This document shows, piece by piece, positions 2,213 to 64,000 of a stretch of 64,000 bases of DNA. Both the position numbers and the translations under genes were made by a program. A model generated the notes under the pieces. It did not search any database. It saw only the letters and a list, made by a program, of their open reading frames with translations, and was not told where the DNA came from. Source of the stretch: Mobula hypostoma (lineage: Eukaryota); assembly GCF_963921235.1 (NCBI RefSeq), contig NC_086108.1, positions 11,408,001 to 11,472,000 of the forward strand, read 5' to 3'. The first letter of the stretch is position 1; every line of letters starts with the position of its first letter.

Positions 2213-5200
2213 GGCACTGCTGCAGTGGCCTTTTGGACCTGGTGATACTTTAATTTAATTATTTAATTTAATTTTAAGGTACAATTTTTGATTAGGGCAC
2301 ATGGATAACAGAGCGACTATCTACCATCGCCAGATACTGCTACAGTACAGAGATCGTCCAAAAACAAGCCTTCATGAAGATCTGCTGGCTAAATTATGCA
2401 ACCTCGGCTCGCTGAGGGGATCGGGCCTACAGTCCTCGGAGTCGCCTGATGCCGGTGGCCGGAGGTGGAGACGTCGTAAGCGGTGTGCGAGGAAGCGGAA
2501 GCGAGGCAAGCGAGCAGGAGTCTGTGCCAGGAAAAAAGCAAACCCTAGCTGGCTGGCTCTCCAATGTCCGCTCCCTGGACAATAAATTGGACTGCATCCT
2601 ACTCCAATGAAATACTCGGCAGGAGTACAGAGTCTGCTGTGTGTATGTTTTCACGGAAACGTGGCTCACCGACGGAATCCCAGACGTAGCCATTCAGCTG
2701 GACGGGCTCGTCTTGTGTCGAGCAGACAGAGGTGCAGCTCTTTCCAGTAAGACTCGCGGTGGTGGCTTGTGTGTTTACAGCAATACGGAATGGTGCAAGA
2801 ACTCTGCTGGTTTCCAGATACTGCTCATCGCTAGTGGAGCTTGTGACTGGTAGATGCAGACCATTTTATTTGCCACGGGAGTTCACCACTGTCCTTATAG
2901 TCGATGTCTACATTCCCCCCAGCGCTAATGCTAAGGAGGTGCTCTGTGAACTGTATGGGGCTATTAGCGAACTGCAGAACGCACACCCTGGTGGACTGTT
3001 TATTGTCGCCGGAGATTTTAGCCACGCGGACCTTAAGTCAGTGCTCCCCAAATTCCATTAGAATGTGGACTTTTCAACGAGAGGGGAGAACACTTTAGAT
3101 CTTGTTTACATAATTATTCTTGACATGTACCAGGCAGAGCCACGCCCCCACCTCTGTTACTCAGACCACATCTCTGTTCTGCTAATCCCAGCATACAGAC
3201 CGCTCGTCAGGCGCTCCAGACCAGTTCTGAAGCAGGTGAAAACCTGGCCAGCAGGAACCATCTCTGCTCTTCAAGACTGCTTTGAGCACACTGACTGACA
3301 CATGTTCAGGGAGGCTGCAACTGATGGTGACTCTACCAGTTTAGAGGAGTACACGTCATCAGTGACTACCGACATCAGCAAGTGCATTGATGACATCACT
3401 GTGGCCAAGACCAGCACTACACGCGCTAACCAGAAGCCATGGATGACCGCGGAGGTGCGTGCGCTGCTGAGGACCCGTGACTCTGCCTTCAGAGCAGGTG
3501 ACAAGGCAGCCCTAACAACAGCGAGGGCCAAACTGTCCTGGGCCATCAGAGAGGCAAAGCGTGCACACGCCCAACGAATCCACAGCCACTTCCAGGACAA
3601 CGGCGACACGTGGCGCACATGGAGGGGATTCAGGACATCACTAACTACAAGACAACACCACCTGACTGTGCGGGTAATGCCTCCCTCCCAGATGCGCTGA
3701 ACAACTTCTACGTTCATTTTGAGGCAGAAAATGACGTGGCGGTGAGGAAGACCACCCCTCCTCCAAATGACCAGGTGCTGTGTCTTACCGTGGCCGATGT
3801 GAGGAGAACCCTGTGCAGGGTCAACCCACGGAAGGCTGCTGGACCAGACAATATTCCTGGCAGAGTGCTTAGAGGATGTGCAGACCAGCTAGCTGAGATT
3901 CTCACTGACATCTTCAACATCTCCCTGAGCAGTGCCGTCGTTCCTATGTGCTTCAAGGTTGCTACCATTGTCCCCGTGCCGAAGAAGTCTTCAGTGTCCT
4001 GCCTGAACGACTACCATCCCGTTTCACTCACAGCCATCATCATCATCGAGAGGCTCGTCATGAGGCACATCAAGACCCTGATGACCCCTCACTAGACACC
4101 GTCCCAACCATTCAACAGAGAATGCCATTGCCATAACCCTCCACCTGGCCCTAACCCACCTGGACAAAAAAGACATGTACGTTCGAATGTTGATCATAGT
4201 CTTCAATTCAGCATTCAACACAATCATTCCTCAGCACCTGACTGGAAAGCTGAAACTGCTGGTTCTGAACACCTCCCTCTGCCACTGGATTCTAGACTTC
4301 CTGACTGGGAGACCTCAGTCAGTCCGGATTGGAAGCAGCATCTCCAACACCATCACACTGAGCACGGGGGCCCCCCAGGGCTGTGTGTTCAGTCCACTGC
4401 TGTTCACTCTGCTGACCCATGACTGTGCTGCAACGCACAGCTCGAACCACATCATCACGTTCGCCGATGACACAACCGTGGGGGGGTCTCATCAGCAAGA
4501 ACGATGAATCAGCATACAGACAGGAGATGCAGTGGCTAACAGACTGGTGCAGAGCCAACAACCTGTCTCTGAATGTGAACAAAACAAAAGAGATGGTTGT
4601 TGACTTCAGGAGGACACGGAGCGACCACTCTCCACTGAACATCAACGACTCCTCCATAGAGATCATTAAGAGCACCAAATTTCTTGGTGTTCACCTGGTG
4701 GAGAATCTCACCTGGTCCCTCAACACCAGCTCCATAGCAAAGAAAGCCCAGCAGCATCTCTACTTTCTGCGAAGGCTGAGAAAAGTCCATCTCCTACCCC
4801 CCATCCTCACCACATTCTACAGAGGTTGTATTGAGAGCATCCTGAGCAGCTGCATCACGGCCTGGTTTGGAAATTGCACCATCTCGGATCGCAAGACCCT
4901 GCAGCGGATGGTGAGGTCAGCTGAGAAGATCATCGGGGTCTCTCTTCCCACCATTACAGACATTTACACCACATGCTGCATCCGTAAAGCAAACAGCATT
5001 ATGAAGGACCTCACGCACCCCTCATACAAACTCTTCTCCCTCTTGCCACCTGGCAAAAGGCACCGAAGTATTCGGGCTCTCACGACCAGACTATGTAACA
5101 GTTTCTTCCCCTAAGCCATCAGACTCCTCAATACCCAGAGCCTGGACTGACACCAACCTACTGCCCTCTACTGTGCCTATTGTCTTGTTTATTATTTATT

Positions 5201-16568: not shown

Positions 16569-17242
16569 GATAGCTCAGAGAGTATGGTGATTAACACTCA
16601 TTTTGGGTGTGTTGGTGTGAAGATCTAGGTGTTTGAAAGTCACAACAGTCCTCTCTGGCAGGGGTGTAAAACAAACCCATCTTAGCTCACCTGCCCGGTC
16701 AGAATGAGGCGCATGCTGAGGGGATCAGGTACACACAGGCAGTGAGACACCGGTTGACCATGACCAGTACAATGCACATAACCCCTGACTCACACACTGA
16801 GACCTGTCAACTGCAGTTTGTACTTCTTCTCCTCTCCCTGTCTTCTTATTCTGGCCTCCTACCCCTCCCTTTCCAGCTCTAATGAAGGGTCTCAGCCTGA
16901 AACATCGACTGCTTACTCCCCTCCATTGACACTACCTGACCTGCTGAGTCCCTCCAGCAGTTTGCATGTGTTACTCACACAATGAGATGTAATTTCATAT
17001 GACTGGAATGTATGTATAGTGGAGTACTGCCACAGCCATCTGGTGCTGTGATATTTAAAGTTTAAGCAAAATGTAATTCTGAATCAGAGTTAGGTTTAAT
17101 ATGGCAGGAGAGTCTAAGACCAGAAGACAGAGCCTCAGAATAGAGGTGCGTCCTTTTAGAACGGAGTTAAGGAAGAATTTCTTTAGCCAGAGGGTGGTAA
17201 GTTTGTGGAATTCCACATGCAGCTGTGGAGGCCAAGTCATTT

Positions 17243-30011: not shown

Positions 30012-30266
30012 TGTGGTGACCCACTTTCTACGCAGGCGAGCCGGCTAACAAAATGGCGCCGGGCCTTCTTCTTCACCAGCAAGGGGAGAAAGCCCGCGCG
30101 CAGGAAGAGACTTTTGTAATGCACCTTTGACATCATTTCCTCCCAGAGAGGGTGGGAACAGAACTGCGTAAAAGCCAGTGCCGCGAAGTTTGAATAAGCT
30201 AGTCTCGAGTGCAACTTACAGACCGCGTGTCGCTATTTCTACCTCTGTGTGTAGCACATCGCTACA
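30012..30266 (+). repeat. 5' LTR (255 bp)
   Basis: TGTGG...CTACA; direct repeat of 34068-34357. Confidence 0.93.
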
Positions 30267-30305
30267 TTGGCGACCCCTACGGTCCAAATGGGATTTGGAC
30301 CAAAG

Positions 30306-31009
30306 ATGATTGACTCTTCATCTGTTCACACAGTTTCACTAAAACTGCCAACTTTCTGGACGCTGCGACCACGCGTGTGGTTTGACCAAGCAGAAGCCCA
30401 GTTCCAGATTCGGCAGATATCTTCTGATTCCACACGTTACTATTACGTGGTGAGCTCCCTTGACCAGGAGACAGCCGCCCAGGTTGAGAATTTCATACAG
30501 TCACCCCTGGAAGAAGGCAAATATGCAGCATTCAAAGCGCTGCTCATAGAGACCTTTGGCCTCTCACGGCGTGAGCGAGGTGCCCGCTTGCTGCACCTGG
30601 ACGGTTTGGGAGACAGGCCGCTGTCAGCATTAATGAACGAGATGCTGGCCTGGCTGAAGGACACAAACCCTGCCTCATGTTTGAGCAGGCGTTCCTAGAG
30701 CAACTGCCCGAGGACATACATCAGCTGCTGGCCGACGCAGATTTCAGTGACCCCCAGAAGGTGGCGGCCTGGGCAGACGTGCTGTGGAAAGCGAAGAGGG
30801 AGAGCGGGGCGTCTATCAGACAGATTACCAAGCCACACGCCCAACAGCAGGCCAGACCAGGCCCAGCAACGGAGAGCAGACAACCCAGAGGCAGGAGTTG
30901 GGAGGCCAATGAACAGTGGTGTTTCTACCACCAGCGGTGGGGCACAGAAGCCTGCCATTGTTGCCCGCCCTGCAATTACCCGGGAAACGCCAGGGCCAGC
31001 TGCCGCTAA
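30306..31009 (+). pseudogene. gag: Gypsy gag, frameshifted
   Basis: KLPTFW..PRVWFDQAEAQF; CHCC motif CFYHQRWGTEACHCCPPC. Confidence 0.85.
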
Positions 31010-33965
31010 TGGCTATGGAAGCTGGCCACCAGGACAGCCTCCTGTACGTCTGGGACAAATAGTTGGGACGCCGCTTCTTGGTCGACACTGGAGCGGAGAT
31101 CAGCGTCTTACCCCCAACGGGGTATGACACCCGCAACAGGGAGCCGGGACCCACCCTGAGGGCCGCAAACGGCAGCACGATACGGACCTACGGCACTCGC
31201 ACAGGGCAGCTACAGTTCGGCGCCGGCCATTTCACGTGGGACTTCACACTGGCCGCCGTGGCCCAACCACTCCTGGGGGCAGACTTCTTGTGAACCCACA
31301 ACCTGCTGGTCAACTTGCAAGGGAAAGACTGGTCCATGCCAAGACTTTCCAGACGTTCTCCCTGGGTGAAGCCAAGTTGCCGGCCCCACACCTGGACTCC
31401 ATCACGCTGTCTGACAACGAATTCACCAGAATCCTGGTGGACTTTCTATCGGTCCTGGCACTGCAGTTCACGGCAGCCATGCCCAGACGGAGTACAACAC
31501 CACATTCTGACACAGCGACCACCCCTCCATGCCCGCGCACAAAGGCTACCCCCGGACAAGCTCCGCCTGGCGAAGGAGGAGTTCAAGAGGATGGAGGAAT
31601 TGGGAATCATACGGAGGTCTGACAGCCTATGGGCCTCCCCCCTGCACATGGTGCCCAAAGCAGCCGGGGGCTGGAGACCATGCGGCGACTACCGCAGACT
31701 GAACGAGGCTACAACTCCAGACCGTTACCCCGTGCCGCACATACAGGACTTTGCAGCAAACCTGCACAGGGCAAGCAGCTTTTCCAAAGTAGACCTCGTC
31801 CTGGGGTACTGTCAAATCCCGGTACACCCTGAAGACATCCCCAAAACAGCACTCATCACCTCGTTCGGCCTGTTCGAATTCCTCCGAATGCCGTTTGGCC
31901 TGAAGAATGCCGCACAGACGTTCCAGCGGCTAATGGATGCGGTGGGACTCGACCTGGACTTTGCGTTCATCTATTTGGACGACATCCTCATAGCCAGCAG
32001 TAGTCGTCAGGAGCATCTGTCCCACCTCCGCCAGCTCTACTCCCGCCTGGGTGATTTCAGCCTCACGATCAACCCGGCCAAATGCCAGTTCGGACTTGAC
32101 ACCGTCGACTTCCTGGGCCATAGGATTACCAAAGACGGGGCAACACCTCTGCCCGCCAAGGTAGACGCGATCCACCACTTTGCCTGGCCCAACACAGTCA
32201 AAGGTCTGCAGGAGTTCTTCGCTATGGTGAACTTCTACTGCTGCTTCCTCCCCTCAGCAGCCCGTATCATGTGCCCTTTGTTCACCCTGATGTCGTGTCA
32301 AGGCAAGGACATTACTTGGGACGAAGAGGCCGTGGCTGCTTTCATTAAAGCCAAGGAAGCCTTGGCAGACGCCGCGATGCTGGTACACCCCAGAACGGAT
32401 GTTCCAGCTGCCCTCACAGTGGACACATCCAACACAACAGTCGATAGGCTGCTGGAGCAACTCATTGAGGGGCGCTGGCAACCCCTGGCGTTCTTCAGCA
32501 GGCACCTAAGGCCACCTGAACTCAAGTACAGTGCATTCGACCGGGAGCTGTTGGCACTATATCTGGCAATCCGGCATTTCAGGTACTTCTTAGAAGGCAG
32601 GCCATTCACCGCGTTCACGGACCACAAACCGTTGACCTTCGCGTTCATGAAGGTGTCCGATCCCTAGTCGGCCCGCCAGTAGCGACATCTGTCCTACATC
32701 TCCGAGTACACGACGGACATCCAGCATGTCTCAGGAAAGGACAACATCGTGGCAGACGCACTCTCCAGACCAGCTATCCAGGCCCTGTCGCAGGGGGTGG
32801 ACTATGCAGCACTGGCGCTGGCGCAGCAGGCAGACGACGAGATGCCCAGCTACAGGACCGCAGTCTCCGGTTTGCAGCTGCAAGACTTCCTTGTAGGCCC
32901 AGGTGAGAGGACCCTCCTGTGTGATGTGGCTACCGGCCAACCTCGCCCCCATTGTCCCAGCAGCCTGGCGGCAGCGAGTTTTCAACTCCATACATGGCTT
33001 TGCGCACCCATCTATCAGGACAACCGTCCGGATGGTCTCCAGCAAGTTCATGTGGCACGGACTTCGCAAACAGGTCAGTGAATGGGCCAAAACATGCACG
33101 CAGTGCCAAACGGCCAAGGTGCAGCGGTTCACCAAAGCCCCACCGCAGCGGTTCGAACCCACCCGCCAGAGGTTCAACCACACTCATGTGGATATCGTGG
33201 GGCCCCTGCCAGTGTCACGAGGAGCGCGGTACCTCCTAACTATGATAGACCGGTTCACCAGATGGCCAGAGGCAGTCCCGCTCACCGACACCACCTCCGA
33301 ATCCTGCGCCCGAGCACTGATTGCAGCCTGGGTAGCACGCTTCGGGGTACCAGCCCACATTACCTCTGACAGGGGCGCCCAGTTCACCTCCAGCCTGTGG
33401 TCGGCTGTGGCCAGCCTGTTGGGAACACAGCTACATCACACAACTGCCTACACCCACAGTGGAACAGACTAGTGGAGCGCTTCCACCGTCACCTGAAATC
33501 GGCTCTCATGGCCCGCCTGGAGGGGCCTAACTGGGTGGACAAGCTTCCCTGGGTCCTGCTCGGAATCCGTACGGCGCCCAAAAAGGATCTGCACACCTCG
33601 TTGGCTGAGCTGGTGTACGGCGCACCCCTGGTCATCCCAGGAGAGTTCATACCAGACTCAAGGGGGCAGGAGGAAGAACCCACAGCAGTCCTGGACAGAC
33701 TACGCGAAAGGCTCGGCAACCTGGCCCCTGTACCGACTTCACAGCACGGACAGATCCCGACCTGCGTACCCAAAGACCAGCAGAACTGTAAGTTTGTATT
33801 TGTACGAAGGGGCACACACTGGGCACCCCTACAGCGGCCGTATGAGGGGCCGTTCAAGGTGATCAGCAACAACGGGTCCATGTTCGTGCTGGACACTGGG
33901 GGGAGAGAGGAGGTTTTCACGGTGGACCGACTCAAACCGGCCCATGTGGACTTGGCGCAGCCGGT
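31010..33965 (+). pseudogene. pol: Gypsy pol (protease-RT-RNase H-integrase) with stops and frameshifts
   Basis: FLVDTGAE; WRPCGDYRRLN, MPFGLKNA, YLDD; YSAFDRELLA, TDHKPL; H..AH/CTQC, HVDIVGPLP, SDRGAQF, GPF motif. Confidence 0.95.
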
Positions 33966-34067
33966 TCGAGGTTCAGGCATCGAGGCGCAGAGGCAGACCA
34001 CCCAAACAGAGACTGATCCAGACTGTGGACATTGGGGGATGTATCGCCGGTTCTGGAAGGGGTGTTA

Positions 34068-34357
34068 TGTGGCAACCCACTTTCTACGCAGGCGAACCGG
34101 CTCAGAAAATGGCGCACACATCGGCAGAGAGGCCAGCCCCAAAATGGCGCTAGGCCTTCTTCCTCACCAGCAAGGGGAGAAAGCCCGTGCGTGGAAAGAG
34201 ACTTTTGTAATGCACCTCTGTCGTCATTTCCACCCAGAGAGGGCGGGAAGGGAACTGAGTAAAAGCCAGTGCTATGAAGTTTGAATAAACTAGTCTCGAG
34301 TACAACTTACAGACTGCGAGTCGCTATTTCTAGCTCTGTGTGTAGTACATCACTACA
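34068..34357 (+). repeat. 3' LTR (290 bp)
   Basis: TGTGG...CTACA followed by the TSD GAAG. Confidence 0.93.
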
Positions 34358-34871
34358 GAAGCACATATATTACTATATCACAAATTTGATCTATCTTAAC
34401 TACTTTGATAACTGTATTTCAATATAATCAGTTTCATTTGTAATCCCGTGTTTTCTATTTAAATACATTATTCTGAGAAGCAGTCCACAGGCTTGACAGA
34501 CTGGCAAAGGGGTCCATGGCATTAAAAATGTTAAGAACCTCTACCCTAGAGGGAAAAAATCTATCTGGGTTGCTCCTCTTATATTCAATCTGGGAAAAGT
34601 CAAGGGGGTCAACATCAGGAACTAACATTATCAATGTGGAACTCTCTCCCTTGTGGAGAGACCTAAGCAATCCTTGCAGGTCAGTTAGCATCTATACAGA
34701 GGAATAAATAGTTGTTGTTTCAGGTTGAGATACTTCTCATCCCAAAATGCTGACCCTTTATCCCCCTCCATAGATGCTGCCTGACCTGCTGTGCTCCTCC
34801 AGCATTTTGTGAGTGTGCTGCTTTGGATTTTCAACATCTGCAGAATCTCTTCTGTTTTAGCAAACCTTTAA

Positions 34872-35415: not shown

Positions 35416-38400
35416 TTATACTATGTACTTTATTGTCGCCAAGCAATTGGTACTAGAACGTACAATCATCACAGCGATATTTGATTCTGCGCTTCACACT
35501 CCCTGGATTACAAATATTAAATATTAAAAATATTAAAAATAGTAAAAATTAGTAAATATTAAGAATTTAAATTATAAATCATAAATAGAAAATAGAAAAA
35601 TGGAAAGTAAGGTAGTGCAAAAAAACCGAGAGGCAGGTCCGGATATTTGGAGGGTACGGCCCAGATCTGGGTCAGGATCCGTTCAGCAGTCCTATCACAG
35701 TTGGAAAGAAGCTGTTCCCAAATCTGGTCGTACGAGTCTTCAAGCTCCTGAGCCTTCTCCCAGAGGGAAGAGGGATGGAAAGTGTGTTGGCTGGGTGGGT
35801 CATGTCCTTGATTATCCTGGCAGCACTGTTCCGACAGCGTGCGGTGTAAAGTGAGTCCACGGATGGAAGATTGGTTTGTGTGATGTGCTGCGCCATGTTC
35901 ACGATCTTCTGCAGCTTCTTTCAGTCTTGGACAGGACAACTCCATACCAGGTTGTGATGCACCCTAGAAGAATGCTTTCTATGGTGCATCTATAAAAATT
36001 AGTGAGGGTTTTAGGGGACAGGCCAAATTTCTTTAGTTTACTCAGGAAGTAAAGGCACTGGTGGGCCTTCTTGGCAGTGAGCTCTGCTTGGTTGGACCAA
36101 GTCAGGTCATTTGTGATATTGACCCCGAGGAACTTAAAGCTTTTGACCTGTTCCACTTGAGCACCACCGATGTAAATTGGGTCGTGCAGTCCGCTACTCC
36201 TTCTGAAGTCAACAACCAATTCCTTCATCTTGCTGACATTGAGGGATAGGTTATTGTCTTGGCACCATGCCATCAGGTTCTTAATTTCCTCTCTGTACTC
36301 AAGCTCATCATTACCTGAGATACGGCCTACAATTGTTGTGTCATCAGCAAACCTACATTGAGTTTGATGGAAACTTGGCTACACAATCATGGGTGTACAG
36401 TGAGTACAGCAGGGGCCTGAGTACACAGCCTTGTGGGGCACCAGTGATCAGAGTGATTGTAGAGGAGAGCTTGTCCCCTATTTTTACAGCCTGGGTCCTG
36501 TCTGTGAGGAAGTTGAAGATCCAGCTGCAGATCTGAGTGCTAAGGCCCAGGTTCCGGAGCTTAGGAATCAGTTTATTTGGAATGATGGTATGAAAGGCAG
36601 AGCTGTAGTCAATGAAAAGGAGCCCTACGTATTCGTCTTTATTCTCCAGGTGTTCTGAGGAGGAATGTAGGGCCAGAGAGATGGCATCTGCCATTGACCT
36701 GTTGCTCCGGTAGGCGAATTGCAAAGCATCGAGGTTGACCAGTAGGCTGTGGTTGATGTGTGCCATAACCAATCTCTCGAAGCACTTCATAGCAATTGAT
36801 GACAGAGCCACAGGTCTATAGTCATTCAGGCATGCCACCTTGCTCTTCTTCGGCACTGGGATTATCATTGCCTTCTTAAAACATGAGGGGATCTTAGACT
36901 GAAGCAAGGAGCAGCTGAAGATGTCAGCAAACACTCCAGCTAGCTCGCTTGCACAGGCCCGGAGAACCCATCCTGGGACGCCATCTGGGCCCATCGCCTT
37001 CCTTGGATTTATCTTCAGGAAGGCCCTTCTAACGTCCTCCTCGGTGATGATGAATCTCAATGCCACCAGGTCCGGTTCATCTGAAGGGAGCTGGACGCTC
37101 CTCTTCTGTTCGAATCTTGCGCAGAATACATTAAGTTCATCAGGAAGAGAAGTGCCACAGTTATTGATATTCCCAGCCTTTTCTTTGCACACAGTAATCT
37201 CATTTAGTCCCTGCCATAGTCTACTGGCATCCCTTTGGTTAGCTTGGGTTTCCAACTTGGCTCGATATTGCCTCTTGGCACCCTTAATGGCTTTCCGGAG
37301 TTCACACCTGGATTCCGTGTAGCGACTGGCATCCCTGGACCCAAAAGCCGCAGCTCTAGCCTTTAAAAGGGACTTGACCTCATAATTCATCCAAGGTTTC
37401 CGGTTAGGGAATACCCGGATCGTCCTGCGAGACACACAGTCCTCCGTGCATTTCCAAAAAAGTCCGTGACAGCTGAGGCATACTCATCGAGGTTAGCTGC
37501 CGAGTCCTTGAATACTAACCAGTCCACCGATTCAAAGCAGTCACGGAGGACCTCATCCGTTTCCTCCGTCCAACGCGACATTACTTTTGACACCGTGACC
37601 TTCCGCTTCAGTTTCTGTTTGTAAGCCAGGTTGAGGAGTATGGCCTGATTGTCCGATTTTCCGAAGTGAAGTCGTGGGACAGAATGGTAGGCATCCTTGA
37701 CTGCTGTGTTGCTGTGGTCAAGTATATTCGGGCCTCTAGTGGGGCAGGAGACATGTTGGTATAACTTCGGCAGGGCCTTTCTGAAGTTGGCCTGGTTAAA
37801 GTCCCCGGCTATAATGATCAAAGCCTCCGGATACCTGGTCTCAAGTTCACTGATGTTGGCATACAGTATGTTCAGAGCACACTCCACGACTGCCTGGGGG
37901 GGAATGTAGACCGCTGTCAGTATGACCGAGGTGAATTCCCGTGGCAGATAGTAGGGACGGCACTTCACTGACGTGTTCCAGGTCCGGGCTGCAGGAGCTT
38001 GTCAGTGCCACTGTGTCCGAGCATCACCCAGTGTTGATCAGTAGGCAGACACCACCTCCCCTCGTCTTGCCCAGAGATACCGTGTGGTCCATCCTATGGA
38101 TTGAAAATCCCTCCAGTTGGATGGCACAGTCGGGGGTGGCAGAGGAGAGCCAGGTCTCGGTGAAACAGAATACACAGCAGTTCTGCATCTCCCTGCAGTA
38201 GGTGAGTCTCCCTTTAAGAATATCCACCTTGTTCTCTATGGCTTGCACATTAGCTAGTAGGATGGTGGGCATAGGGACCCTGAAGCCCCTCAGCTTCAAT
38301 CTGACCAGCAGCCCAGCTCTTTTCCCACGCTTCCTCGGTAAGTAGTGCATCTTTCCAGGTTTCCATCGATGCAGTGTGTTGTCAGCTCTTTGAGGTAGGT

Positions 38401-42385: not shown

Positions 42386-43619
42386 TGAAAGTGAGTCCAC
42401 AGCTGCGAAGCTGGTCATCACTGCAGCTGACTCAGGAACCTGTTGGCTGCAGGCCGCAGGCTCACTTAAGCACAGACTTCGTGGAAGAGTGAGCTGGACC
42501 AAACTGTCCCTCACCTCCAGCCCTGATATCCTGACCATTTCAAACTGGCCCGTTGCTTCAATACGCTTTTGGCCCCATCACTGTGACTCGGCCCATATCC
42601 AACCTTTCCAATTTGGCCTTGCGCTTAATTCGCTCAAACCTATGTTCTTTCCTTGCTCTCAGGCCAACGTCTTGACCCTGCCTTACCTCAGTCCTGCCGC
42701 ATCAAATTGCCTCCATGTCTGCTCCAGCTGCGACCAAACACTAGCTCATTCCCCGCTGCTGGGCCCAGGCCCCGCTGCCTCGATTTGGCCTGTACATGCT
42801 TTATTGCCACCATCCTGCACCTTCAGTTCACACCACAGAAGTGCCAAGTTGTACAGGTGGTTCAGAAGCTCAACTCTGAAAGGGAAGTTGCAGGCTATTG
42901 ATTGCAGTGATTGTTTGCCAGAAAAAGTGTGAGTAATAAAGTAATCAGTCTTTCTCTTTGTTTTATTTGCTGCTGGCAAGTAATAGCTGAGTCTCACTAA
43001 TGTCATCTTAAAGTAGAAGTGGTTTGCTATTGCCTTCTCCTGGGTAGTGTCTTTACGAGACGGGTGACCCGAGCCATAATCAATACTCTTCAGAGATCCT
43101 GGCATCAGTGGTCGCATAACCAGGACCTGTGATACACATCAGCTGCTCAGACGACCATCCACCACCTGAGCACATGGCTTCACGTGACCCTGAATGGGGA
43201 TCAGGGGGGTGGGGGGCTGCCTAAGCAGGTGCTACATCTTGCCCAAGGGTGACCTGCAGGCTAGTTGAGAGAAGGAGCATCTTACACCTCATTTAGTGAA
43301 GATGTAACTCCACTCAGCCATCCATCTACGTAGCCTTCCATTTTTAACTCATCCATATGCCTATCTAAGAGTTTCTTAAATGCTCCTAAAGTATCTGCCT
43401 TGACCACCCTCCAGCAGAGGTTCCACACACCCACCACTCTCTATGTAACAAATTTACCTTTGACATCCCCCTCTGCACTTCCTTCCAATCACCTTAAAGT
43501 TATATACATGAAAATGTCTGCAGATGCTGGAAATCCAAAGCAACACACACAAAATGCTGGAGGAACTTAGCAGGTCAGGCAGCATCTATGGAGGAGAATA
43601 AACAGTCGACGTTTCATGG

Positions 43620-48462: not shown

Positions 48463-50867
48463 GAAAGGCTATCTTAGATTGGATATTGTGTAATAGCCCA
48501 GATCATATTAGAGAGCTTAATGTAAAGGAACCCTTAGGAGACAGTGTTCATAATATGATTGATTTCATACCGCAAATTGAGAGGGAGAAGCATAAGTCAC
48601 ATGTATCAGTATTGCAATGGAATAAAGGGAATTATAGAGGCATGAGAAAGGAGCTTGCCCAGGTAGATTGGAGGAGGATATAGGTGGGAATGATGACAGA
48701 GCAGAGATGGCGGAAGTTTCCGGGAATAATTCACAAGGCGCAGGATAGCTATGACCCAAAGAGGAAGAAGTTCTCCAATGGCAGGGGTAGGCAACAGTGG
48801 CTGACAAGGGAAGTTAAGGACTGTATAAAAGCCAAGGAAAAAGCATTTAAAGTAGCAAAGGTAATTGGGAAGTTGGATGATTGGGAAGTTTTTAAAATCC
48901 AACAAAAGGCAACTAAAAAACTATAAAAGTGTTGGAATCTATTATTAAGGATGAGGTTTCAAGGTACTTGGAGACGAAGGATAAAATAAGTCAAAGTCAG
49001 CATGGTTTCTGTGAAGGGAAATCTTGCCTGACAAATCTTTGAGGAAGTAACAAGCAGGGTGGACAAAGGAGAGGCAGTGGGTGTCATTTACTTGGATTTT
49101 TGGAAGGCATTTGATAAGTGCCACACATGAGGCTGCTTATCAAGATAAAATCCTATAGTGTTACAGGAAAGATACTGGCAGGGTATGGCGGAATGGCTGA
49201 CAGGCAGGAGGCAGTGGGAGGGAATAAAAGAGGCCTTTTCTGGTTATCTGCTGGTGATCAGTGATGCTCCTCAGGGGTCAGTATTGGGATCACTGCTTTT
49301 CACATTGTTTATCAATGATTTAGGTAATGGAATTGATGGCTTTGTGGCAAAGTTTGTGGATGATACAAAGGAAGGCGGTGGGGTAGGTAATGCTGAGGAA
49401 GCAAAGCAATTGCAGAGGGCTTAGACAAATTGGAAGAATGGGCAAAAAAGTGGCAGATGGAATACAGGGTTGGGAAATGTAGATAATGTATTTTGGTATA
49501 AGGAACAATAGTGCAGACAATTATTTAAATGGGGAGAAGGTTCAAACATCAGAAGTGCAGAGGGACTTAGGAGTCCTCATGCAAAACTCTCAGAAGGTTA
49601 ATTCACAGGTTGAGCCTATGGTAAAGAAGGCAAATGCAATGTTCGCATTTATTTCAAGGGGAATAGAATATAAAAGCAAGGAGGTAATGCTGAGCCTTTA
49701 TAAGATACTAGTCAGGCTGCACTTGGCAGTATTGTCAACAGTTTTGGGACCCATATCTCAGAAAGGATGTGTTGTCCTGGGAGACAGTTCAGAGGAGGTT
49801 CACGAGGATAATTCAAGGAATGAAGGGGTTAGCATATGAGGAGTGTTCGGCAGCTTTGGGCCAGTACTCACTGGAATTTAGAAGAATGCAGGGGGATCTC
49901 ATTGAAACCCACTAAATGTTGAAAGGACTAGATAAGGTGGATGTGGAGAGGATGTTTCCTATGGTGGGGGTTCCTCTGGTGCATATATTTAAGGTGGAAG
50001 TTGATTGTTTTCTGATTGGTCAAAGCATTAAAGGAGATGGCGAGAAGGCAAGTGTATGGGATTGTGTGGGATCTGGGATCAACCATGATAGAATGGCAGA
50101 GCACCTAATTCTGCTCCCACGTCTTATGGTCCAGGGATAGAGTTCTTCTTGCCCTTCCCAACCACCTGACTTAACCTACCACCTTCAAGTTATCTTCCTT
50201 TCCTTTCCTCTAGCTTTTTATTCTGGAATCTTCTCCTTCCTTTCCAATCCTGAAGAAGGGTCTCAGCCCAAAACGTCAACTGTTTATTCATTTCCATCGA
50301 TGCTGCTTGACCTGCTGAGTTCCTCCAGCATTTTGTGTGTGTTGCAAACTTACTAATCCACTTTCTACATTTTCATTAAGCTCATAGGCAATACATCACA
50401 AACAGCAGACACACCAGTATAGATCCATGGAGAACATCACCAGTCACTATCCTCCAGACAAAATATTTCATAAACCAAACTTTTTTAAAGATAATTCCCA
50501 AGTTTTCACACTAATTTACCGATATTTGATTTTTTTCCCCCTGTAAATCAAGATTTTATTTATTTGTCTGAATTTAAATGCTCAGGTCCTTTGCTGGGAT
50601 TTGAATTTCTATTTCTGGATGAAAAACTGAGCCTCTGAACGGCAGTTCCAATAACTTAGCTGCAACAGTATTGTTGACCGTGCCTGGGAAGGAAGTTGTT
50701 TGGTTCCAGTGTTCCCCAGCAGTCTGTGAGCCGGAGTAGTTCTTAGTTTGAACCAAGACAACAAATCAGGGTCACAGAGTCACACAGCATGATCAGACCC
50801 TTTGACCCACCATGTAAATGCTGACCATCAAGTACGTATCTCCACTAATCTCGTTAACCAGGCACAC

Positions 50868-52770: not shown

Positions 52771-53109
52771 ACACTCTTTATCTACATTTGCTTGCTTCAG
52801 GGACCTACAGCCTTGTACATCAGGGTCCCTCTGTTCCCCAATACTTTCACAAGGCCTTACCATTCATTGTCCTGATGAAGGATCTTGGCCCGAAAGCCTA
52901 ACTGTTTATTCCTCTCCATAGATGCTGCCTGACTGCCTGACTGCTGAGTTCCTCCAGCATGTTGTGTGTGTTGCTCTGGATTTGCAGCATCTGCATTCTT
53001 GGGGGAAAAATGTCAGATGGAATTTAATGCAGACAAGTTCAAGGGATTGCACTTTCATAGAACGAACCAGCTAAAAATTAAATGTAAAAACTCCCAAAAA
53101 TGAATCCCT

Positions 53110-55353: not shown

Positions 55354-56712
55354 ATAGAACATAGAATAGTACAGAACAGTACAGGCCCTTCGGCCCACAA
55401 TGTTGTGCTGACCCTCAAACCCTGCCTCTCATATAAGCTCCCACCTTAGATTCCTCCATATACCTGTCTAGTAGTCTCTTAAACTTCACTAGTGTATCTG
55501 CCTCCACCACTGACTCAGGCAGTGCATTCCACGCACCAACCACTCTCTGAGTAAAAAACCTTCCTTTAATATCCCCCTTGAACTTCCCACCCCCTTACCT
55601 TAAAGCCATGTCCTCTTGTATTGAGCAGTGGTGCCCTGGGGAAGAGGCGCTGGCTATCCACTTTATCTATTCCTCTTATTATCTTGTACACCTCTATCAT
55701 GTCTCCTCTCATCCTCCTTCTCTCCAAAGAGTAAAGCCCTAGCTCCTTTAATCTCTGATCATAATGCATACTTTCTAAACCAGGCAGCATCCTGGTATAT
55801 CTTCTGTGTACCCTTTCCAATGCTTCCACATCCTTCCTATAGTGAGGTGACCAGAACTGGACACAGTACTCCAAGTGTGGCCTAACCAGAGTTTTATAGA
55901 GCTGCATCATTACATCGCGACTCTTAAACTCTATCCCTCGACTTATGAAAGCTAACATCCCATAAGCTTTCTTAACTACCCTATCCACCTGTGAGGCAAC
56001 TTTCAGGAATCTGTGGACATGTACCCCGAGATCCCTCTGCTCCTCCACACTACCAAGTATCCTGCCATTTACTTTGTACTCTGCCTTGGAGTTTGTCCTT
56101 CCAAAGTATACCACCTCACACTTCTCCGGGTTGAACTCCATCTGCCACTTCTCAACCCACTTCTGCATCCTATCAATGTCTCTCTGCAATCTTTGACAAT
56201 CCTCTACACTATCCACAACACCACCAACCTTTGTGTCGTCTGCAAACTTGCCAACCCACCCTTCTACCCCCACATCCAGGTCGTTAATAAAAATCACAAA
56301 AAGTAGAGGTCCCAGAACCAATCCTTGTGGGACACCACTAGTCACAATCCTCCAATCTGAATGTACTCCCTCCACCACCACCCTCTGCCTTCTGCAGGCA
56401 AGCCAATTCTGAATCCATCTGGCCAAACTTCCCTGGATCCCATGCCTCCTAACTTTCTGAATAAGCCTACCGAGTGGAACCTTGTCAAATGCCTTACTAA
56501 AATCCATATAGATCACATCCGCTGCACTACCCTCATCTATATGCCTGGTCACCTCCTCAGAGAACTCTATCAGGCTTGTTAGACACGATCTTCCCTTCAC
56601 AAAGCCATGCTGACAGTCCCTGATCAGACCATGATTCTCTAAATGCCTATAGATCCTATCTCTAAGAATCTTTTCCAACAGCTTTCCCACCACAGATGTA
56701 AGGCTCACTGGT
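55354..56712 (-). mobile_element. Young 5'-truncated CR1 LINE with an uninterrupted RT/C-terminal frame (~380 aa), nested in a V-SINE
   Basis: QHGFVKGRSCLTSL, DFSKAFDKV, GVPQG, FADDTK, RPHLEYCVQFW; V-SINE halves at 55222-55353 and 56713-56850. Confidence 0.95.
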
Positions 56713-57282
56713 CCCACCACAGTCCAAAGACGTATTGGTTATTGTAAAATGTTTCACGAGCAGATAGGGTTAAGTAAGTGGGTTGCTGGGTGGCAAGGCT
56801 CATAGGGCTCAGAGGGCCTGGTCTGTGTGCTATCTCAATAAAAAAAAATCCAAAAGAACCCATTAAAAAAAGACCATCAAACACCCAATGTGCAGAGATA
56901 AAACAAAACTAATCATGCAAACAATAAATGCAAGCAAACAGTGTTCTGGAAACTGAAGTCCACACAGACCCTCAATTCAGCACAGAACAGAGCAGTGATC
57001 TGAACCGACCTGCCCTTCACACCTTGACCTTTTCAATCTGACCCGGTCCTCGTGGAGGAAAGAAAAATGTTTCAAGATATAACAGAAATAAAACCTGTGA
57101 GATTTTTCAATTCAGTAAAGGAGGGTCAAGAAATCAATACAGAAAGAAATATGTGAGAATAGACAAACGAGATTCTGCAGATGCTCGAAATCTTGAGCAA
57201 GACACACAAAATGCTGGAGGAACTCAGCAGGCCAGAAAGCACCTATGGAAGGAAGTAAATAGCCAATGTTTCAGCCCAAAAT

Positions 57283-57850: not shown

Positions 57851-58121
57851 GCCCAAAATATTGACAGTTTATTCTCGTCCATAGATGTTGACTGACCTGT
57901 TGAGTTCTTCCAGCATTTTGTGTGTTTTGTAAAACATGAGCATGTCACGTGGGGCAGGTTGACTTACTTGCTGGTCAAAAACTGTTGTCACCATGTCAGT
58001 CTTTGATTGGCCCTTTTAAAGGATGCGGCTGCTCTTTTCCATTGGTTGGTCTGCGTGTCATGGCATTAGTATACGGTACTGGGTGCGTCAGAGGTATAGG
58101 AATAGCATGTGCAAGAGATTT

Positions 58122-58403
58122 TAAAACGTAACCACGAGGAATTCTGCAGATGCTGGAAATTCAAGCAACACACATCAAAGTTGCTGGTGAACGCAGCAGG
58201 CCAGGCAACATCTCTAGGAAGAGGTACAGTTGACGTTTTGGGCCGAGACCCTTCGTCAGGACCCAGTCGACTTTTCGGGCCGAGACCCTCCGTCAGGAAC
58301 GAAGGGTCCTGACGAAGGGTCTCGGCCCGAAAAATCGACTGTACCTCTTCCTAGAGATGCTGCCTGGCCTGCTGCATTCACCAGCAACTTTGATGTGTGT
58401 TGC
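58122..58403. mobile_element. Palindromic Penelope-derived non-autonomous element with three hammerhead-like motifs
   Basis: ~100-bp inverted arms at 58164-58263 and 58305-58404; TGTGCAAGAGATTT duplicated at 58108 and 58404. Confidence 0.8.
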
Positions 58404-58710
58404 TGTGCAAGAGATTTGTTCCCTTTCCCTTGTCTCCAGGGGCCTGGTTCGGCTGAAGTCACAACCAATGGTAAAGGATCATTGGGAAAGAGTGTTGCAG
58501 ACATAGGGTTTGTTTAGTGAAGTATTTGTTTGTCAAGCTATTTGTTTTTAGCTGGACATCTGGTTTAGTGTTTCACTGCGCATCAGGTGTTGGTATTTCT
58601 TTTTTTTTAATTGGTTTCTTTCGGGTTTCTTGCTTTATGGCTGCCTGTAAGCAGAATTTATACATTCTTTGATAATAAATGTACTTTGAATCTTTGAGAC
58701 TTAGAAATTA

Positions 58711-59849: not shown

Positions 59850-60800
59850 GTAACACCCGCAAAATGCTGAAGGAACTCAGCAGGATAGGCAGCATCTGTG
59901 GAAAAAAAGTACAGTTGACATTTCGGGCTGAGACCTCTCAGCAGGACTGGAGAGAAAAAGCTGAGGAGTCGATTTAAAAGATTGGGGGAGGGGAGAGAGA
60001 AATGCAAGGTGATGGGTGAAACCAAGAGGGGGAGGGAGTAAAGAGCTGGGAAGTTGATTGGTGAAAGAGATACAGGGCTGGAGAAAGGGGAGTCTAATAG
60101 GAGAGAACAGAAGGCCACAGAAAAAAGAAAAGGAGGAAGGAGGGAGGCAAGGAGATAACCTAGAGAACGTGAAAAGGGATGGGGGGGGGGTGCGGAGAAG
60201 GCATTACCAGAAGTTTGAGAAATCAATGTTCATGCCATCTACAGAACATAAGACATTCATCCTCCAACCTGAGTGTGGCCTCATCACAACAGTAGAGGAG
60301 GCCATGGATGGACATATCGAAATGGGAATGAGAAGTGGAATTAAAATGGGTGGCCACTGGGAGAAGCCACTTTTTCTGGCGGATGGAGGGTAGGTGCTTG
60401 GCAAAGTGGTCTCCAAATCTACATTGTGTTTCACCGATATTCAGGAGGCCACACCGGGAGCACCGGACACAGTATATGACCCCTACAGGTGAAGTGTCGC
60501 CTTACCCAGAACGAATGTTTGGGGCCCTGAGTAGTAGGGAGGGAGGAGGTGTAGGGGCAGGTGTGGCACTTGTTCCGCTTATAAGGATTAGTGCCAGGAG
60601 GGAGACCAGTGGGGAGGGACGAATGGACAAGGAAGTCACATAGGGAGAGATCCCTGCGGAAAGCAGAAAGTGACTCCCTTACAGAAGGTTGACCAATCGA
60701 CTTCCCAGCTCTTTACTTTATCCCTCCTCCTCCTGTCTTTGCCTACCACCTTTTGGGTGTGTTGCTTGGATTTCCAGTAGCTGCAGATTTTCTCTTGTTT
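59850..60800 (-). mobile_element. Penelope-like element remnant (GIY-YIG endonuclease, Neptune-like) with terminal repeats
   Basis: Minus-strand frame from 60483 reads GVIYCVRCSRCGLLNIGETQCRFGDHFAKHL..PVATHFNSTSH; upstream KCHTCPY; a partial inverted terminal repeat at 60690-60800. Confidence 0.88.
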
Positions 60801-61184
60801 GAGACAAACAAATGGATGGATTTCTGGACATCAAAGGACTTCAGGGGTGGGGTATCTTCCAAAAAAACACTCAGTTTATTTAAAGTGATAGTTGACAGGT
60901 TCTTCATTAGTCAGGGCATGAAATGTTACAGGGAGCGGGAAGGTGAATTGGGCTGAGAGGGATAGTAAATCAGCCATGATGGAATTGTGGGGCAGAATGG
61001 ATGGGCTGAATGGCCTAATTCTACTCCTATGTCTCATGGTCTTATGCTCTGATGGTCCAAAATAGTGTTGAGATGGAAGATTAGCTGCATCTTGTTGAAC
61101 TGTGCAATAGGACTGAGAGGCTCCTTCTTCTCCCACAGCTTGCATTCCAGATCTCTGAAGGACTCTGCCTCTCACCTACATTGG

Positions 61185-62872: not shown

Positions 62873-63083
62873 ATATTCGAAAATTCACTTTGCCCAAGGG
62901 CGACCTACAGACTAGTAGAAGGAAGGAGTGTCTTACACCTCCTTTGATAGAGACCAATCTCCACCCGCCACCCAAAATATAAACACGTCCTTGTATCTTG
63001 AGGCTGTGCCCTTTCGTGCTATACCTCCCACCATCAGAAATATCCTCTCCACATTGACTGTATGTAACACTTCCAATATTCAA

Positions 63084-63254
63084 ACAACAGGAATTCTGCA
63101 GATGCTGGAAATTCAAGCAACATACATCAAAGTTGCTGGTGAACGCAGCAGGCCAAGCAGCATCTATAGGAAGAGGCGCAGTCGACGTTTCAGGCTGAGA
63201 CCCTTCATCAGGACTAACTGAAGGACTCACCAGCAACTTTGATGTATGTTGCTT
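63084..63254 (-). mobile_element. Short Penelope-derived element with a partial inverted repeat
   Basis: CTTCCAATATTCAA duplicated at 63070 and 63252; same subfamily as 58122-58403. Confidence 0.8.
63179..63216 (-). ncRNA. Putative minimal type I hammerhead ribozyme
   Basis: Minus strand UAGUC-CUGAUGA-AGGGUCUCAGCCU-GAAA-CG-UC-GACUG: intact core, stem I AGUC/GACU, stem II AGG/CCU. Confidence 0.7.
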
Positions 63255-63432
63255 CCAATATTCAATAGGTTTCAGTGAAATTTCCCCTCACTTTTCTGAT
63301 CCAGCGAGTACAGGCCCAGAGCCATCAAATGTTCCTCATGCCTTAACCCTTTCATTGCCAGGGTCATTCTTGTGACCCTCCTCTGGCCCTTCTCCAATGT
63401 CAGTACATCTTTTCTTAGATACAGGTCCAAAA

Positions 63433-63874
63433 CAAACATCACACAAACCAATCTTCCGTCCTTGGACTCACTTTACACCGCACGCTGTCAGAGCAGTGCT
63501 GCCAGGATAATCAAGGACACGACCCACCCAGCCAACACACTTTTCGTCCCTCTTCCCTCCGGGAGAAGGCTCAGGAGCTTGAAGACTGGTACGGCCAGAC
63601 TTGGGAACAGCTTTTTTCCAACTGTGGTAAGACTGCTGAACGGATCCTGACCCGGATCTGGACCGTACCCTCCAAATATCCTGACCTGCCTCTTAGCTTT
63701 TTGTACTACCTTACTTTCCATTTTCTATTTTCTATTTATGACTTATAATTTACATTTTTAATATTTGCAATCGATTTGTACTCCAGGGAGCAGGAAGTGC
63801 AGAATCAAATATCGCTGTGATGATTGTACGTTCTAGTATCAATTGTTTGGCGACAATAAAGTATAAAGTATAAA
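63433..63874 (+). mobile_element. Rex-Babar 3' fragment, same family as 35416-39062, nested in a minus-strand CR1 that runs to 64000
   Basis: HPANTLFVPLPSGRRLRSLK; (TAAAGTA)n tail. Confidence 0.9.
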
Positions 63875-64000
63875 GCATAAAACTACTCACAGTATTCAAA
63901 ATACGGTCTGACCAATGCCTTACAAAGTCTCAGTGTTACATCTTTCACTTTATATTCTAGTCTTCTCAAAATCAACGCTAACATTGTGTTTACCTTCCTC

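Follow-up and report, generated by a model that had tools for sequence, protein, structure and literature searches.

The 171-base insert at positions 63084-63254 of the window (that is, the whole 64-kb stretch of DNA analysed here) is almost certainly a single, heavily 5′-truncated copy of the pseudo-LTR (pLTR) end of an abundant Penelope-like element (PLE) with reverse transcriptase (RT) and GIY-YIG endonuclease (EN) sequence. We consider the whole account, in which such a 5′-truncated PLE copy was likely primed from both nicks on uncut RNA, to be highly probable. The insert is a real feature of an ordinary kind, the stump of a known retrotransposon class. A preliminary description had read it as a non-autonomous, retrozyme-like family with an RNA that cuts itself after GUC and is mobilised by PLE enzymes; of this assignment the last part stands, as the insertion was made by PLE enzymes, and the rest does not agree with the results given below.

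Positions given as +n or −n count from C17 of the hammerhead (window 63184), with the minus strand as RNA sense. The longest direct repeat flanking the insert is 14 bp long (TSD; plus strand, 63070-63083 on the left and 63252-63265 on the right). At either end of the insert, 3 nt of this repeat are shared with the element; on the left these are the last 3 nt of the left copy, which match the tail start site of the PLE RNA as well. The insert sits inside an older host repeat, paralogues of which (e.g. L190, L116 and window 204) cross the site with a single 14-mer. Since these paralogous sites read through with one 14-mer copy, the insertion and its TSD are real. The long 'tail' arm (63081-63225, minus strand) consists of the last 145 nt of the PLE pLTR, from −41 to +103, and bears at 63081-63114 (minus strand) a PLE 'tail' of 31-34 nt that is absent from the inverted arm. 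We call it a tail on the basis of two 3′-end classes among the 100 arms described below, as in the tails reported in parts of PMC3846280, PMC8557442 and PMC11167929. The short, inverted, tail-less arm (63227-63254, plus strand) corresponds to pLTR +42 to +69 and is a perfect 28-bp inverted copy of 63115-63142; its last 3 nt overlap the right TSD. The 3′ ends of the two arms are therefore at +103 (tail) and +69 (tail-less), with a 3-nt match between target and element at each. A single base outside both arms, 63226, forms the inversion junction. The roughly 170-bp insert with its 14-bp duplication and 3-nt overlap at the element end, and the short inverted self-copy at its end, are present as the preliminary description had them. 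Its term 'non-coding' holds for the insert as it sits and fails for the stretch itself, which is the start of the reading frame of the parent element. The folding z-score of −6.8 reflects the inverted arm only.

The window holds a second insertion of the same family, from an older subfamily (about 89%), at 58108-58417, with a tail arm at 58122-58262, a tail-less arm at 58306-58403, a rearranged junction and a 14-bp TSD. There is also an older PLE 3′ fragment (60210-60755) with GIY-YIG coding sequence at 66% amino acid identity to P0001 and pLTR pieces reaching to about 59873. At least eight older PLE pLTR-end fragments, 69-93% identical to the young family, lie at 16884-16977, 34770-34857, 43517-43616, 50248-50345, 52869-52995, 57172-57251, 59873-60073 and 60757-60801; some of their hammerheads have decayed. 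Other retrotransposons in the window include a gypsy-type LTR element (30049-34357), with direct repeats at 30049-30266 and 34140-34357 that are 89% alike and broken frames bearing RT, RNase H and integrase-like sequence (domains assigned by eye). LINE-type RT fragments occur at 3271-5114, 35899-38001, 55566-56738 and 63436-63878, and window 63436-63702 is 93% complementary to 35620-35886.

The parent element was reached through searches of the genome. A first search scored 40 candidates and gave 79 matches, most of them the insert segment in head-to-head pairs, and in two of the loci (L009 and L031) the segment extends upstream into pLTR and the GIY-YIG coding end. A search with the ORF region gave 668 candidates; of the loci retrieved, all 30 of 30 carry the pLTR segment at 93-99% identity, so that the supposed retrozyme-like family is the pLTR end of an ORF-bearing PLE. 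On widening 20 of these 30 loci to 10 kb, three (L065, L067 and L069) were found to be partial tandems of the form pLTR-ORF-pLTR with a unit of about 3.5 kb. Window 63225-63081 is identical to the L065 pLTR at 142 of 145 positions. Two of the differences are CpG transitions in the window copy, at 63207 (N7) and 63196 (loop II), both outside the conserved core, and the third is private to L065, as 108 of 108 sampled arms carry the base of the window. In L065 the RVT_1 (E 4e-5) and GIY-YIG (E 6e-4) matches are both below the Pfam cut-offs, and the GIY-YIG match of L031 passes. The open frame of L065 spans 1038 aa and is not an intact ORF, since two compensating indels put the linker region between them into another frame; a parent with a fully intact ORF was not found. 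RT, linker finger and endonuclease share one frame in the natural copies L075 and L119, with the CX2-5CxxC finger lying in the RT-EN linker. By the linker-finger criterion given for Neptune and Nematis in parts of PMC8557442, the sequence places the putative parent with Neptune or Nematis, the two not being separated. A frameshift shared by ORF copies (27 of 27) was rejected as a feature of the family because the query had selected for it: of 13 unbiased copies, 7 keep the frame across the C-rich run concerned, which lies between RT and linker (L065:6981-7000 and equivalents), varies in length and often shifts the frame. A sister PLE family forms a cluster at G000:C1:97.1-98.1 Mb (L195-L198), with 55-80% amino acid identity, tandem or inverted ORF pieces and a compensatory change in stem I of the hammerhead.

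The copy numbers separate the family from the particular unit seen in the window. An exact 25-mer of the pLTR has 71,367 matches in the genome and a 23-mer of the ORF 5′ region has 573, whereas the 24-mer across the window junction occurs once in 3.48 Gb. As the pLTR 25-mer is found 71,367 times but the window junction only once, the insert is not a mini-family, and the family unit of the preliminary description is lost with it. Among 413 insertions with both arms reaching −40, the first 50 have about 41 distinct junctions, the commonest seen 4 times (hand count); among 375 insertions with a short arm, the first 100 likewise show varied junctions. The unique window junction and these heterogeneous junctions mean that the unit is assembled anew at each insertion. 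A master copy with a fixed junction had been considered, as a similarity-ranked search suggested recurrence; exact and gapped pattern counts revealed this to be an artefact of likeness to the query.

The minimal type I hammerhead motif is at 63180-63215 on the minus strand. In RNA sense it reads AGUC (63215-63212), CUGAUGA (63211-63205), an extra A, stem II (63203-63192), GAAACGUC (63191-63184) and GACU (63183-63180), with AGUC/GACU as stem I and a palindromic ACGU replacing stem III. All core bases (C3-A9, G12-A15.1, U16.1 and H17) are present along with helices I and II, the extra A lies between 9 and 10.1, stem I has 4 bp, stem II has 4 bp opening with a G-U pair, and the predicted cut is between 63184 and 63183. 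The intact core on the minus strand, and its assignment to the minimal type I hammerheads of PLEs, were thus correctly described before. A strict core regular expression found this hammerhead as the sole match on both strands of the 64-kb window. A type I descriptor with checked stems, a search of the kind that had been proposed for it, gave 95 distinct matches in 777 kb of family-enriched DNA against 0 in the reversed control, and a looser pattern gave 1,227 matches genome-wide against 13 in the control. An Rfam scan of the window returned nothing at E<=1. For the 46-nt segment the hammerhead fold (stems I and II) has −5.4 kcal/mol against −10.1 for the minimum-energy fold, so the hammerhead is not the minimum. 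In place of the G10.1-C11.1 pair that serves as a criterion for PLE minimal hammerheads, the window has a G-U wobble, which can still pair; this G-U is found in 79 of 99 arms, and G-C in 20 of 99 and in older families. Small PLE hammerheads reportedly cleave as dimers.

Hammerhead copies within the family decay neutrally, mainly at CpG, with G8 altered in 7 of 90 arms, and in the within-family alignment CpG decay strikes core and palindrome positions alike. Because of this neutral decay, covariation within the family cannot discriminate, and stem covariation, the check that had been suggested, appears only between families. The between-family search imposed the core and a changed +2 base and left the partner bases free. 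Here stem I changes from U-A to A-U in the sister cluster L195-L198 (ORF-linked, one genomic cluster) and from C-G/U-A to A-U/A-U in L192, which also has an altered stem II. In L190 and L191, stem II has 7-8 bp and stem I has a mismatch; among the other 30 loci of this search many are cases of one-sided decay. As the core is kept in other families with different, compensated stems, the comparison suggests selection on the motif in active parents. The hammerhead of the insert is cargo from the RNA leader of its parent and is probably under selection in that leader. Two further repeat families with minimal hammerheads and different stems were seen (L172, L175, L180, L182, L184, L190, L191 and L194, at about 1501, and L192:1501-1537). 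Most of these have a TATA-like box 36-39 nt upstream, and their parent ORF was not identified.

Two overlapping motifs, TTCAGT and TTAGTC, occur at 63212-63222 on the minus strand and resemble the Inr consensus; they may act as initiator-like elements or alternatively as 3′ splice acceptors. An AT-rich box lies 33-39 nt before the core in 6 of 8 representatives. It is missing from the window copy and from L191, both of which appear truncated short of it, and its spacing in the others is consistent with a transcription start near stem I. A TATA box plus an initiator-like element is described for the pLTR of a rotifer PLE in part of PMC3846280. The insert copy has neither the upstream AT-rich box nor the downstream ORF sequence, and as both are missing it was probably dead on arrival. 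Four contig sets (their type was guessed) displayed no starts, ends or GT-AG joints over L065:2892-4900 among the matches listed.

To describe the ends of the copies, an unbiased sample was taken as the first 100 matches of an exact 25-mer (+33 to +57) on contig C1, 0-3.6 Mb (loci L085-L167). This sample comes from one chromosome end, and arms ending 3′ of +33, such as the short arm in the window, fall outside the probe. The arm ends given by BLAST may be off by a few bases, and L088 and L151, which have a flank in common, may represent a single insertion that was duplicated. Two sites, some 35 nt from each other, account for the 3′ ends: 57 of the 100 arms end between +57 and +78 and the other 43 from +95 onwards (42 up to +114 and one at +182), with 15 of these 43 tail arms reaching +106 or beyond, into parent ORF sequence. 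All 34 of the 34 inverted pairs combine a tail arm with a tail-less arm, 17 in each orientation. The tail arm is the shorter in 13 of these pairs, the longer in 11 and within 5 nt of its partner in 10. TSDs of 11-15 bp are present in 31 of the 34 pairs, 13-15 bp in 28-29 of them, and 3 pairs have none that long, the TSD of the window insert being a further, 32nd entry in the tally of lengths; the AT fraction of the TSDs is 0.68. Within an insertion, the two arms carry the same letter at 156 of 168 positions that vary among subfamilies, as against 54% in shuffled pairs (p=2e-4). Microhomology at the ends has a mean of 1.07 nt vs 0.40 nt when shuffled (57 ends, p=2e-4); it is modest, as 22 of the 57 ends share none, and for the anole Poseidon protein PMC11167929 describes initiation at a site not homologous to the cut DNA.

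The 5′ ends are also unevenly placed. Of the 100 arms, 16 end 3′ of −20, 41 between −20 and −60, and 43 further upstream (4 censored), so that 41 of the 84 arms at risk stop in the −20 to −60 region. Stops occur at about 1-2 per 100 nt within this pile-up vs about 0.1 per 100 nt beyond −100, and arms with and without a tail pile up at the same place (medians −31 and −29.5, respectively; hand count). Within it, 15 of 62 short-arm 5′ ends lie in −35 to −29 (p=5e-7 vs uniform), with the peak over the initiator-like motifs; the window arm ends at −41, 6 nt past the main initiator-like site. Run-off at the RNA 5′ end is our tentative reading here, at slightly less than an even chance. Run-off at the cleavage site was rejected, as a single arm out of 100 begins where the hammerhead would cut and 2 ends were observed at −2 to +3 of the cut site vs 2.8 expected. 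Paired arms show the pile-up far more strongly (42 of 68) than unpaired ones do (11 of 52; 2 double-counted arms removed, overlapping loci), and annealing of two cDNAs at a short inverted repeat at about −40 to −18 may for this reason contribute to it. An upstream probe with 44,465 genome matches, above the prediction from the sample, gives no genome-wide confirmation of the pile-up because it also catches other subfamilies.

The marks of an EN+ PLE insertion were all found, namely a parent with RT and C-terminal GIY-YIG, partial tandems, a one-sided tail and a TSD. As to how the two arms arose, both 3′ ends of a staggered cut probably primed reverse transcription on element RNA, and the simplest account would be two-site priming from both nicks on uncut RNA of one source with the cDNAs end-joined, which agrees with anole Poseidon. 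In the main text of PMC11167929 the anole Poseidon protein cuts and extends both strands in vitro with uncut RNA as template and uses two internal start sites that bracket the tail; the protein is a predicted dimer, depends on the first 172 nt of the ORF, which lie downstream of these sites, and inserts hammerhead mutants normally. Reading the steps from genomic end-products, the PLE endonuclease would have nicked both strands 14 nt apart. Priming would then have occurred at two start sites, the tail site (about +103) for the top-strand 3′ end and the inner site (about +69) for the 3′ end of the bottom strand, with 3 nt of pairing to aid each. One cDNA would have copied 145 nt through the hammerhead to −41 and the other halted after 28 nt, with end-joining through one extra base and gap filling by repair to follow. 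A broader reading is that a protein dimer primes both nicks of a 13-15-bp staggered cut, always with one tail and one inner start site, copying mostly an uncut mRNA whose 5′ leader begins at the first strand of the hammerhead. The minimal hammerhead would then be less a cutter than an ACGU-palindrome dimerisation signal that brings two templates of one source to two active sites. We regard this extension as rather unlikely in its full form; if the dimer two-site reading is true, tens of thousands of short copies record the unsolved insertion reaction of PLEs.

The main rival to two-site priming starts from the same truncated PLE copy and derives the inverted arm by self-priming or fold-back, with an endonuclease resolving the palindromic intermediate at two staggered sites and leaving the tail on one end. 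Self-priming on the antisense template was proposed from junction palindromes in part of PMC3846280, and sections of PMC8557442 ascribe the tail to EN-mediated resolution. Many of our junctions are hairpin-like, and the concordance of arms within an insertion fits fold-back as well as it fits two primings. Simple fold-back of one tail-initiated cDNA is nevertheless insufficient, as the tail arm is shorter in 13 of the 34 pairs and longer in 11, and the former would need extra trimming. The RT start sites found in vitro (main text of PMC11167929) moreover coincide with the tail ends, and microhomology from target to RNA is present at both ends. We judge this route improbable. Less probable again is the use of short pLTR copies as secondary templates, their transcripts being reinserted in trans by PLE protein with a new junction each time. 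About 60 of the 100 arms are short, solo pLTRs of rotifers mobilise other sequence in trans (passages of PMC3846280) and some junctions are seen repeatedly (up to 4 of 50), all of which speaks for it. The recurrent junctions, however, sit at palindromic microhomologies, and the tail arms noted above that run into the parent ORF speak against it, as does the first part of the ORF that the anole protein requires (main text of PMC11167929) and that short copies lack. Upstream of the hammerhead, a polypyrimidine-AG tract resembles an acceptor, which makes a spliced template or a branch-point stop a possible alternative; no intron-less copies or common upstream exon were seen among the arms starting at −33 to −30.

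A retrozyme-like family, in which a short RNA would cut itself after GUC in dimeric form, become circular and be reinserted through PLE enzymes, is very improbable, and for the insert locus itself this reading is already largely refuted. The core is intact with its palindromic ACGU, short copies far outnumber full-length ones, and animal retrozymes derive from PLE pLTRs according to parts of bioRxiv 2026.07.22.740005. Yet the junction is unique, the motif is minimal and not canonical, the same subfamily variants are present in ORF-bearing copies, neither boundary of the insert is at the GUC site, and the arms very rarely start there. Head-to-tail arrays, a mark of retrozymes, were absent from the insert locus and from the 73 loci with a whole hammerhead; the sole same-strand neighbour is a fragment of an older family (81%) lying 178 bp away.

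Stumps of this sort should be left out of retrozyme counts in hammerhead screens. As a dataset the family is useful, and the copy statistics are the part worth keeping, as they bear on the mechanism of PLE insertion. With about 70,000 arms, a young family offers sharp, testable numbers for inverted pLTRs, one-sided tails and the role of the hammerhead, that is, the strict pairing of tail with tail-less arms, TSDs of 13-15 bp, the lack of ends at the cut site and the pile-up just upstream. Neither two-site priming for PLEs nor the upstream pile-up was found in the literature searched, which consisted of main texts and few subscription papers.

On comparing the insert with known systems, the animal non-LTR retrozymes (parts of PMC7229834 and bioRxiv 2026.07.22.740005) resemble it in being short, non-coding, related to pLTRs and dependent on PLE enzymes, with a type I hammerhead. 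They differ in forming head-to-tail arrays and circular RNAs with mostly canonical hammerheads, whereas the insert is a one-off inverted insertion with a minimal motif; neither head-to-tail repeats with at least two hammerheads nor a fixed-boundary unit amplified as its own family, the two marks of a retrozyme, is found here. The motif is like the metazoan PLE minimal type I hammerheads in sections of PMC4209133 in its full core, the extra base between 9 and 10.1, the short helix I and a helix III reduced to a palindromic residue. It departs from them in that 10.1-11.1 is mostly G-U and not G-C and helix II is short (4 bp); activity here is predicted, and in the same source the minimal hammerheads cleaved weakly, and then only when dimeric or trimeric or when a helix III was added. 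With the EN+ PLE insertions in parts of PMC3846280 and PMC8557442 the insert shares a hammerhead pLTR, an adjoining inverted truncated copy, a TSD, strong 5′ truncation and a 30-40-nt tail on one end only, but unlike those described it is cut down to 171 bp without the ORF body, and TSDs are 13-15 bp here as against 8-10 bp in the rotifer examples. The finger found in the parent copies is that of a Neptune/Nematis-type PLE (C-terminal GIY-YIG, CX2-5CxxC linker finger). Anole Poseidon PAc is of a different clade, and here the microhomology between primer and template is small but significant; it is nonetheless alike in its two internal RT starts bracketing the tail, the extension of both strands, the uncut RNA and the AT-rich targets (main text of PMC11167929, which does not discuss inverted pairs and TSDs). 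To these systems the present family adds a count for the pairing of tail with tail-less arms.
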